Shown here: positions 2,529 through 3,104 of the stretch, piece by piece | How the letters are laid out: every line of letters starts with the position of its first letter | How positions within the stretch are numbered: position 1 is the stretch's first letter | Origin: a virus | Lineage: Duplodnaviria > Heunggongvirae > Uroviricota > Caudoviricetes | Strand: one strand, 5' to 3' | Length of the DNA: 14,727 nt | Virus record (IMG/VR): IMGVR_UViG_651053023_000012 | Location: 1-14,727 of that record | Position numbers and translations under genes: made by a program | Notes under the pieces: generated by a model | What the model saw: the letters and a program-made list of their open reading frames with translations, nothing else | The model's database searches: none | Told to the model about the DNA's origin: nothing

Positions 2529-3104
2529 TATGCAGCGTCGAGAAATAAAGAAAATTACTTATTTAATCACTTTGATTTTAACTACTCTTTTGTTTGTTTA
2601 TTTTTTAAGAACACCCACCACAATCAATATGAAACAGGCGCATAAAATAAATCAACAACACCAGACAATTTTCCTTATCCGTCACGGTGAACGATGTGAC
2701 AGAAGCAAAAATGCATGTCTCTCAAGCAATAAAGGAATTACCGTCAATGGTGCCATTAAAGCTCGTGATTATGGAAAAATATTTAGCAATACTTTCCCGT
2801 CATTCAGCCTTTACTCCACGGATACCATACGGACAATGCAGACAGCCTGTTTTTCTCTGGAGGAAAAGCAGCCTCCCGGATACCGTTGGCTGCAACATGC
2901 GGACTTGATGCTGCAAAGAACATACTCAAATTGTCATCCGATAATAAAACTACCGTTATATTCACCCATAATCATTGCCTGACACAAATAGCAAAAAAAA
3001 TGAAATGGTGGAAGTTAAAGCCAGAATATCTTGAAACACTGGTTCTTCATATCGAAAACAATCGTCTCATTCTTGACGGAAAACTGACTCACGATAAAGC
3101 GTAA
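2529..3104 (+). pseudogene. Histidine phosphatase superfamily protein (SixA/PGM-like) with an N-terminal hydrophobic signal-anchor. It appears frameshifted around 2870-2890 (or carries a sequence error).
   Basis: The N-terminal frame has the catalytic RHG motif (IFLIRHGER) and a downstream RTMQTA segment. A different frame (open from 2787) carries the C-terminal His motif TVIFTHNHCL. The two frames together resemble SixA (…CGD…LVISHLP) as recalled. The gene is AT-rich and opposite in orientation to the phage genes. Confidence 0.5.

Follow-up and report, generated by a model that had tools for sequence, protein, structure and literature searches.

What does the short AT-rich gene in the late region of a defective lambdoid prophage encode, and why is it split between two reading frames? 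These questions are raised by the phosphatase gene at positions 2530–3104 (plus strand) of a 14,727-nucleotide stretch of DNA, referred to here as the window, which corresponds to the IMG/VR virus record IMGVR_UViG_651053023_000012. It is the late region of a lambdoid prophage that is Qin-like and defective and resides in pig-associated Escherichia coli. A previous interpretation from the letters alone (the sequence-only reading) had proposed a frameshifted, membrane-anchored SixA-like histidine phosphatase, carried as a moron, that could modulate two-component signalling. We consider it likely that the gene is a prophage-borne paralogue of Ais/PmrG, namely an anchored periplasmic phosphatase of the lipopolysaccharide (LPS) core under the control of the host regulator BasR. 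Its membership in the Ais/PmrG family and the position of its frameshift are, in our view, close to certain.

The start codon ATG is located at 2530, one nucleotide after the previously assigned start at 2529, and the stop codon occupies 3102–3104. As had been noticed from the sequence, the RHG motif and the C-terminal THNHCL motif are present in different frames. Frame A (2530–2982) encodes 150 residues, begins with MQRREIKKITYLITLILTTLLFVYFLRTP... and carries LIRHGERCD, and TVIFTHNHCL is encoded by an open reading frame (ORF) in a second frame at 2886–3104. Residues 26–113 of frame A correspond to positions 36–123 of the NCBIfam model NF011945 (111.8 bits, E 3e-32), and residues 6–68 of the second-frame ORF correspond to positions 137–199 of the same model (82.8 bits, E 2e-23). 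Because both halves match one model consecutively, they constitute a single gene split by a frameshift rather than a chance pair of ORFs. The 5' part (2530–2854, plus strand, codons 1–108) covers the lysine/arginine-rich tip, the transmembrane helix, RHGER with R51 and H52, and R101, as delineated from the ORF, the alignment, the profile, the family-invariant residues and the helix 2–27 of the structural model. The 3' part (2855–3104, plus strand), delineated from the ORF, the alignment and the profile, is out of frame with the start codon and holds the invariant H147-N-H149 of THNHCL, H174 and the stop codon. Frame A continues from 2855 to its own stop at 2982 on the plus strand as the out-of-frame tail of the truncated 150-residue product.

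The alignment with intact homologues, which have a 576-nucleotide gene and a 191-residue product, placed the frameshift in a homopolymer. The window has a run of five T (T5) at 2850–2854 on the plus strand, where the homologues have six (T6), and this is the sole gap within the gene. The expected one-nucleotide indel splitting the frames thus turned out to be a single missing T, although it lies about 20–35 nucleotides upstream of the interval 2870–2890 proposed before. When we rebuilt the gene in silico with runs of T4 to T8, only T6 gave 191 residues, and T7 reproduced the protein P0026; MDM5001066.1, from another assembly, encodes exactly the ORF predicted for a T7 run. In the T5 product, the anchor, RHG and R101 are retained, whereas H147, H149 and H174, out of frame in the window copy, are lost; lacking both C-terminal histidines, the product should therefore be inactive, as judged from the predicted protein.

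The family assignment is clear for the intact allele, WP_001189672.1. It scored 207.7 bits against NF011945, the model of the Ais/PmrG subfamily (cutoff 142), and it shares 45% identity (E 6e-48) with the canonical ais gene product encoded next to arnBCA. In NCBIfam, only the two Ais/PmrG models matched at E ≤ 0.01 and no SixA model did; no family of PHROGs or PADLOC was matched. Eight residues do not vary among 21 homologues, namely R51, H52, R55, R101, H147, N148, H149 and H174. The histidine-phosphatase fold previously anticipated is borne out by Pfam His_Phos_1, which the intact allele matches above the cutoff (23.2 vs 21.7), and by structural comparison. Searched by sequence, the PDB yielded no match, and a fold search was therefore needed. 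The AlphaFold2 model (mean predicted local distance difference test, pLDDT, 91.7; predicted template-modelling score, pTM, 0.85) consists of an N-terminal helix of residues 2–27 followed by an alpha/beta domain. Among the Foldseek matches in the PDB, taken at E ≤ 0.001, the best 50 of 291 are all branch-1 histidine phosphatases with the phosphoglycerate-mutase-like fold, some of them as domains of larger proteins, and they include the C-terminal domain of MutT1, phosphoserine phosphatase, PGAM5 and SixA. PmrG dephosphorylates heptose II (Hep(II)) of the LPS core (PMC8129183). By homology, Hep(II)-phosphate would be the substrate of the phage enzyme as well, an assignment that we favour by a narrow margin over doubting it.

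The N-terminus of the protein suggests where the enzyme might work. The hydrophobic sequence KITYLITLILTTLLFVYFL consists of a lysine/arginine-rich tip followed by a 19-residue hydrophobic stretch, with a Kyte-Doolittle average of 1.94 over residues 8–26. The membrane anchor suggested earlier is supported by this segment together with the model helix 2–27. We predict an N-in, C-out topology, with the enzyme located in the periplasm. Such a location would suit an LPS substrate, unlike the cytoplasmic phospho-histidine targets of SixA.

Upstream of the gene, a direct repeat resembling the PmrA/BasR box, GTTAAG-ATTTT-CTTAAT (2461–2477, plus strand), has one mismatch to the pattern YTTAAK-N5-YTTAAK, and a putative −10-like hexamer, TATATT (2488–2493, plus strand), follows exactly 10 nucleotides past the box. 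The PmrA box is composed of the half-sites CTTAAG and xTTAAT separated by 5 bp (PMC3973317). All the diverged clades carried by phages, as well as one plasmid copy, have a co-oriented box at this position, with no more than one mismatch: GTTAAGATTTCCTTAAT in the A10 clade, CTTAAGGATTCCTTAAG, a perfect match, in the clade of locus L013, CTTAAGGATTACATAAG in the clade of L016 and phage GER2, a box of the same type as that of L016 in the clade of L014, L015 and L017, and ATTAAGCGTTATTTAAG in the plasmid locus L006. The end of the box is 47–54 nucleotides from the start codon and 197–207 nucleotides from the RHGER codon. In an alignment anchored on the box, the 45 nucleotides upstream are unconserved between the clades, whereas the box and the hexamer 10 nucleotides downstream are conserved; the hexamer reads CATAAT or AATAAT in the other clades, with the 10-nucleotide gap kept. 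The E. coli arnB box is also followed by a 10-nucleotide gap and then by TAAAAT, read by eye as its −10 element. The background rate of such boxes in the compared loci is 1.2e-4 per position and strand. Where chromosomal ais loci have a box, it is oriented towards arnB and lies 327–369 nucleotides before the RH codon; the box search found none in two chromosomal ais loci or in the IncI1, Dryocola and Pseudomonas homologues. It thus seems reasonably probable, judging from the conserved motif, that BasR/PmrA activates a promoter within the phage cassette itself, one of the OmpR/PhoB class with the box in place of the −35 element.

The gene and its putative promoter belong to an AT-rich island on the plus strand (2358–3175), which comprises the promoter region, the phosphatase gene and a terminator-like hairpin. 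The left limit of this cassette is the start of similarity to an A10 allele that is 89% identical, and its right limit is given by prophages without the moron, which align only from about 3176–3184 onward. The putative hairpin (3133–3175, plus strand) has a G+C-rich stem, ACCCCG...CGGGGU, followed by UUUUG, and is situated between the converging phosphatase and endolysin genes; its RNA fold has an energy of −16.1 kcal/mol and a z-score of −2.67. Strict consensus scans of 2100–3700 for sigma-70 promoters and terminators called nothing, because the predicted promoter is devoid of a −35 hexamer and the U-tract of the hairpin is shorter than the scan demands. The flanks agree with the gene order described previously, in which an AT-rich gene stands between a Nu1 remnant and an endolysin. 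On one side, a DUF1441 (Nu1-like) remnant of the terminase small subunit occupies 1977–2096 (minus strand); it is annotated as a pseudogene by the Prokaryotic Genome Annotation Pipeline (PGAP) in strain ETEC1716 (locus L003, 2977–3096; L003 coordinates are window coordinates plus 1000), and Pfam DUF1441 matches residues 22–72 of a chimeric ORF at 702–2132. On the other side, an M15-family endolysin (3176–3553, minus strand; Pfam Peptidase_M15_4, E 5.9e-12; PGAP in ETEC1716) is the last gene of the lysis cassette and converges on the phosphatase gene, with two holin genes beyond it. The gene has a GC content of 37.7%, vs 52–57% in the flanking phage genes and 47.1% in the window, and the segment 2340–3140 has 35.8%. 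It is encoded on the opposite strand to its neighbours and is present or absent among related prophages; strain W13-16 has the same prophage backbone and lysis cassette without the phosphatase gene. The proposal that the gene is a moron therefore holds, and we regard this status as very probable. The copy number in relatives is one to three per genome for the moron region and up to eight for the lysis cassette.

Homologues of the gene are frequently found in the same slot of other phages. Of 23 related IMG/VR viral-contig loci, 21 have a homologue with 51–62% identity, as does the Stx1 phage GER2; the other two loci have weak giant-virus matches. With one exception, the homologues are encoded on the opposite strand to the late genes and separate the last gene of the lysis cassette from that for the terminase small subunit; at L013, no terminase was recognised in the upstream gene. 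Their lysis neighbour is an M15 peptidase, a muramidase of the GH108 family, or a lysozyme with Rz, and the terminase neighbour is of the DUF1441, the Nu1 or a third type. The GER2-type allele occurs in 43 complete genomes, including that of the O104:H4 outbreak strain 2011C-3493, and single variants were found on at least 1000 contigs, Shigella sonnei included; among 50,697 phage records, only one has the gene. In the GER2 record itself (MG710528; L005 5229–5501), only a 273-nucleotide C-terminal fragment of the phosphatase is annotated. A tblastn search revealed one continuous frame covering residues 27–186, and PGAP gives 193 residues for the same allele elsewhere, so the gene is probably under-annotated in this record and not truncated. 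Distant relatives exist on more than 1,400 plasmids of PLSDB, mostly as the IncI1 protein "TraG". This gene stands between traF and traH (for example L032 3971–4483 on the IncI-gamma/K1 plasmid p15A37, corresponding to O3K_25647 of pESBL). Closer plasmid homologues are 52–63% identical (L057 6914–7507 on pCROD1 of C. rodentium, L058 4847–7507 and L006 7899–8513). The pCROD1 homologue ends a fimbrial operon of the PefC/AfrB type beside a gene for an EAL domain, and others directly follow a pair of Rob-like AraC genes or adjoin AIDA-I autotransporters. Since intact relatives are widespread in prophages and others occur on plasmids, the cargo is recurrent and not unusual, as it had first appeared to be. 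A literature search combining prophage with PmrG, ais, BasR or histidine phosphatase found no relevant paper.

Starting from the observed family, catalytic motifs, fold, genomic slot, presence or absence among prophages and conservation of the upstream motif, we infer the following for the control by BasR, the topology, the substrate and the phenotype. The host regulator BasR/PmrA would drive transcription of the moron through the box standing in place of the −35 element and then the −10 hexamer. The conditions inducing BasSR, which are Fe3+, Al3+ and mild acid, could thereby switch on the moron from a silent prophage, independently of phage development. The product would be held by an uncleaved signal anchor, with its catalytic domain of about 160 residues facing the periplasm, on the path of newly flipped LPS. 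Equipped with R51-H52 as the RHG nucleophile, R101, and H147/H149, the domain might strip the phosphate of Hep(II) on the periplasmic side of the inner membrane and so make the core less negatively charged. A plausible gain for the lysogen could be a changed binding of cations and cationic peptides, with tolerance to metals or such peptides, or an altered LPS-core receptor for competing phages.

Several observations weigh against this interpretation. The host already has a chromosomal ais gene, which leaves the benefit of a second copy unexplained. The assignment of the substrate derives entirely from the 45% identity and the subfamily model, and the score against NF052369, the PmrG equivalog model, is 111.2 bits, below the cutoff of 170, for which reason we call the protein a paralogue within the subfamily and not an equivalog. 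The uncleaved anchor is deduced from the 19-residue hydrophobic stretch and from the lack, by eye, of a small-x-small site. The PmrA box is a match of sequence only; three one-mismatch boxes were found in the window when 1.26 are expected by chance, and the window box alone is not significant. Nor are the conserved boxes independent events, because the clades share ancestry. In addition, the plasmid copies within adhesin loci have no box or only a degenerate remnant of one.

Other functions have to be weighed against that of an LPS-core phosphatase. The original proposal, that a SixA-like phosphohistidine phosphatase reaches the envelope and acts on sensor kinases or phosphotransfer domains, is consistent with the minimal histidine-phosphatase fold and the similar size. 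SixA (1ujb) has the best target coverage and the highest target-normalised template-modelling score (0.72) among the matches listed (E 8.2e-7, root-mean-square deviation 3.8, 153 columns), but the identity is as low as 12%, compared with 45% for the chromosomal Ais, and the NCBIfam matches are confined to Ais/PmrG. Furthermore, the phosphorylated histidines and the histidine-phosphotransfer (HPt) domains of sensor kinases are cytoplasmic, whereas the catalytic domain is predicted to be periplasmic. The term "SixA-like" suits the fold but not the family, which is Ais/PmrG, and we give the SixA-type function the least credence of all the alternatives. A different role is suggested by GenBank, in which AEJ57056.1, the identical protein of E. 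coli UMNF18, is named "transcriptional activator AfrS": the protein might be a co-activator of adhesin or fimbrial expression, acting directly or via an envelope signal with a partner of the AraC family. The plasmid homologues near AIDA-I, near the PefC/AfrB-type fimbrial operon and near the two Rob-like AraC genes would be in line with such a role, and these neighbourhoods may be linked to the name; the window also has an AraC-family gene 1.9 kb away. However, none of the nine clusters examined contains a protein named AfrS. The AraC-family protein of the window is YdeO/GadX-like, unrelated to the Rob-like plasmid neighbours, and its gene is missing from other phages carrying the moron; we rejected an "AfrR/AfrS pair" involving it for the lack of similarity to the Rob-like regulators beyond the helix-turn-helix. 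A membrane-anchored enzyme domain in the periplasm is also unlikely to be a DNA-binding activator, and we find an AfrS-type role quite improbable. A broader possibility, somewhat less improbable but still unlikely, would be that the Ais-like proteins of mobile elements serve in envelope signalling or conversion, not as redundant LPS phosphatases, and are plugged into the BasSR regulon, acting on the LPS-core charge or another phospho-substrate, with off-switching at the T6 run. If so, phage receptor use or adhesin expression might be changed, echoing the name of the AfrS co-activator.

The remaining alternatives concern the missing T, which had been ascribed to either a recent pseudogene or a sequencing error. 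The same two options still stand, with a slight lean to error. By megablast, the region occurs in 28 of 5,426 complete E. coli genomes, 25 of which are from pigs, feral pig or wild boar, and an 81-nucleotide probe spanning the run aligned over 82 nucleotides in all 28; hence these genomes have T6 and none has T5 (none of 38 copies). The intact product is encoded on 188 contigs vs 2 for the T5 product. The 150-residue product of the window is identical to AEJ57056.1/WP_001397965.1 of UMNF18, a porcine F18 enterotoxigenic E. coli (ETEC) whose record is an early draft (scaffold level, 2011, 5.24 Mb), probably obtained by pyrosequencing. Compared with ETEC1716, the closest complete genome, the window has eight substitutions and two homopolymer indels, namely A7 vs A6 at 2405–2411 and T5 vs T6, all within 2158–3864, and the other ~13 kb are 100% identical save for an IS481 element missing from the window. 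That the strain carries an intact T6 and a functional gene, with T5 being a homopolymer under-call or an artefact of the draft consensus in a multi-copy region, would account for the second homopolymer difference, which is also unique to the window and 440 nucleotides away, and would agree with the multiple copies of the moron and the lysis cassette in relatives. The T5 product is otherwise encoded in a single assembly, the 1.7-kb Logan contig SRR12298762, which has a different variant of the lysis cassette and further deletions in A-runs that break its holin genes. Being noisy at homopolymers, it gives weak support for a real allele, and we rejected it as proof of one. On the other hand, only 2 of 97 homopolymer runs of at least five bases differ from relatives, and both of these share a 1.7-kb stretch with the eight unique substitutions, which is atypical of read errors. 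No segment flanking the gene has a 100% match among complete E. coli genomes, and the cluster of differences at 2158–3864 could reflect gene conversion among paralogous prophage copies or a chimeric draft consensus. Decay would also be plausible because the prophage is defective and because the insertion sequence IS2 interrupts the same gene in the sister strain P13-6 (L004), near codon 179 (window site 3064–3068), where a 5-bp overlap of the alignment pieces suggests a 5-bp target duplication and hence an independent disruption of the moron. On balance, a miscall with an intact gene in the strain is slightly the better bet, and a real mutation has a little less than an even chance.

The T run is a hot spot in either case, for slippage or for miscalls. 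One might also consider a contingency tract, in which slipped-strand changes between T5, T6 and T7 switch an LPS-modifying moron off and on, as three run lengths are seen in independent assemblies: T5 in the window and SRR12298762, T6 in the majority and T7 in MDM5001066.1. Six bases are, however, short for a phase-variable tract, the off-length alleles amount to about 3 of ~190 contigs by a rough count, at least one of them from noisy data, and the 89%-identical A10 allele also has T6, so that phase variation appears very improbable. We also rejected a rescue by programmed frameshifting or transcriptional slippage, given that the relatives are in frame with T6, that the run is short and that it has no canonical slippery heptamer.

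The phage gene can be compared with several known systems. Ais of E. coli (b2252) and PmrG of Salmonella resemble it in the score above the NF011945 cutoff, the 45% identity over the whole catalytic domain, the invariant RH(G/A)ERCD and THNHCL, the predicted N-terminal export signal and the PmrA-like box upstream. They differ in several respects. The ais gene adjoins arnBCA, divergent from arnB (pmrHFIJKLM), whereas the phage gene occupies a moron slot with a co-oriented, promoter-proximal box instead of an arnB-oriented one; the phage N-terminus resembles an uncleaved anchor, whereas ...HAAWS of Ais resembles, by eye, a cleavable signal; the phage protein scores below the PmrG equivalog cutoff; and the window copy is frameshifted. 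SixA, the phosphatase of the ArcB HPt domain, shares the minimal branch-1 fold of about 155 residues and the RHG nucleophile motif, but it is cytoplasmic, has no anchor, belongs to another expected substrate class and has only 12% identity. Among mobile elements, the IncI1 TraG belongs to the same family (~43% identity, with the RHGERCD and THNHCL motifs) but is encoded within a conjugation operon, without a PmrA-like box and with a different N-terminus. According to a transposon screen, transfer does not depend on it (PMC4288162). The bor-type morons of lambda are analogous in slot, orientation, lower GC content, present/absent pattern and an envelope-acting product, and they have their own promoter and terminator-like hairpin, for which the window cassette has putative counterparts. 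In lambda, the bor slot lies between the lysis genes and cos/Nu1. Bor, however, is a small unrelated lipoprotein, whereas the phage gene encodes an enzyme and appears to answer to a two-component regulator of the host. The gtr and oac systems are phage lysogenic-conversion modules modifying the O-antigen. Like them, the moron would be prophage cargo altering the LPS of the lysogen, and plausibly phage receptors and host interactions, but they add glucose or acetyl groups to the O-antigen, whereas the phage phosphatase would take a phosphate away from the inner core.

The order of the genes in the window is ydfABC, Q, tRNAs, the AraC-like gene, holins, endolysin and moron, and the head module and most tail genes have been deleted. 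The chimeric ORF at 702–2132 (minus strand) joins a DUF1441/Nu1-like N-terminus, an endolysin fragment and the C-terminal domains of the tail-tip protein J. Its endolysin piece is a 77-nucleotide copy with 97% identity (window 1841–1917 and 3325–3401), so that the deletion junction carries a fragment of the endolysin, and PGAP annotates both halves of the chimera as pseudogenes in ETEC1716. A short G+C hairpin at 2365–2389 (CAGCCC...GGACTG) at the left edge of the cassette has a better stem in A10 and may be a boundary or terminator element, as judged by eye. Between Q and the lysis genes, the YdeO/GadX-like AraC-family gene is located at 5008–5721 (minus strand), next to a tRNA cluster at 4672–4981 (minus strand) consisting of Gly(tcc), Thr(tgt) and a tRNA with the CAT anticodon, called Met by ARAGORN and Ile by PGAP. 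At the place of the tRNA and AraC genes, the relative RM10740 has a longer AraC gene and an ompC porin moron. The IS481-family element of ETEC1716 is also found in P13-6, in both cases beside hokD at the position corresponding to window ~9541–9546, where the window has none.

In summary, the gene should be labelled as an LPS-core phosphatase of the Ais/PmrG type instead of a SixA-like signalling phosphatase. As such the finding is ordinary, because the family is already known and annotated. What is new relative to the sequence-only reading is the conserved promoter motif of the phage-borne clade, whose resemblance to the PmrA box suggests control by the host. The BasSR regulon governs resistance to polymyxin, cationic peptides and metals. 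If the control by BasR were confirmed, the moron would be a clean case in which a prophage gene has joined a two-component regulon of its host, and it might represent a new route to the lysogenic conversion of the LPS inner core.

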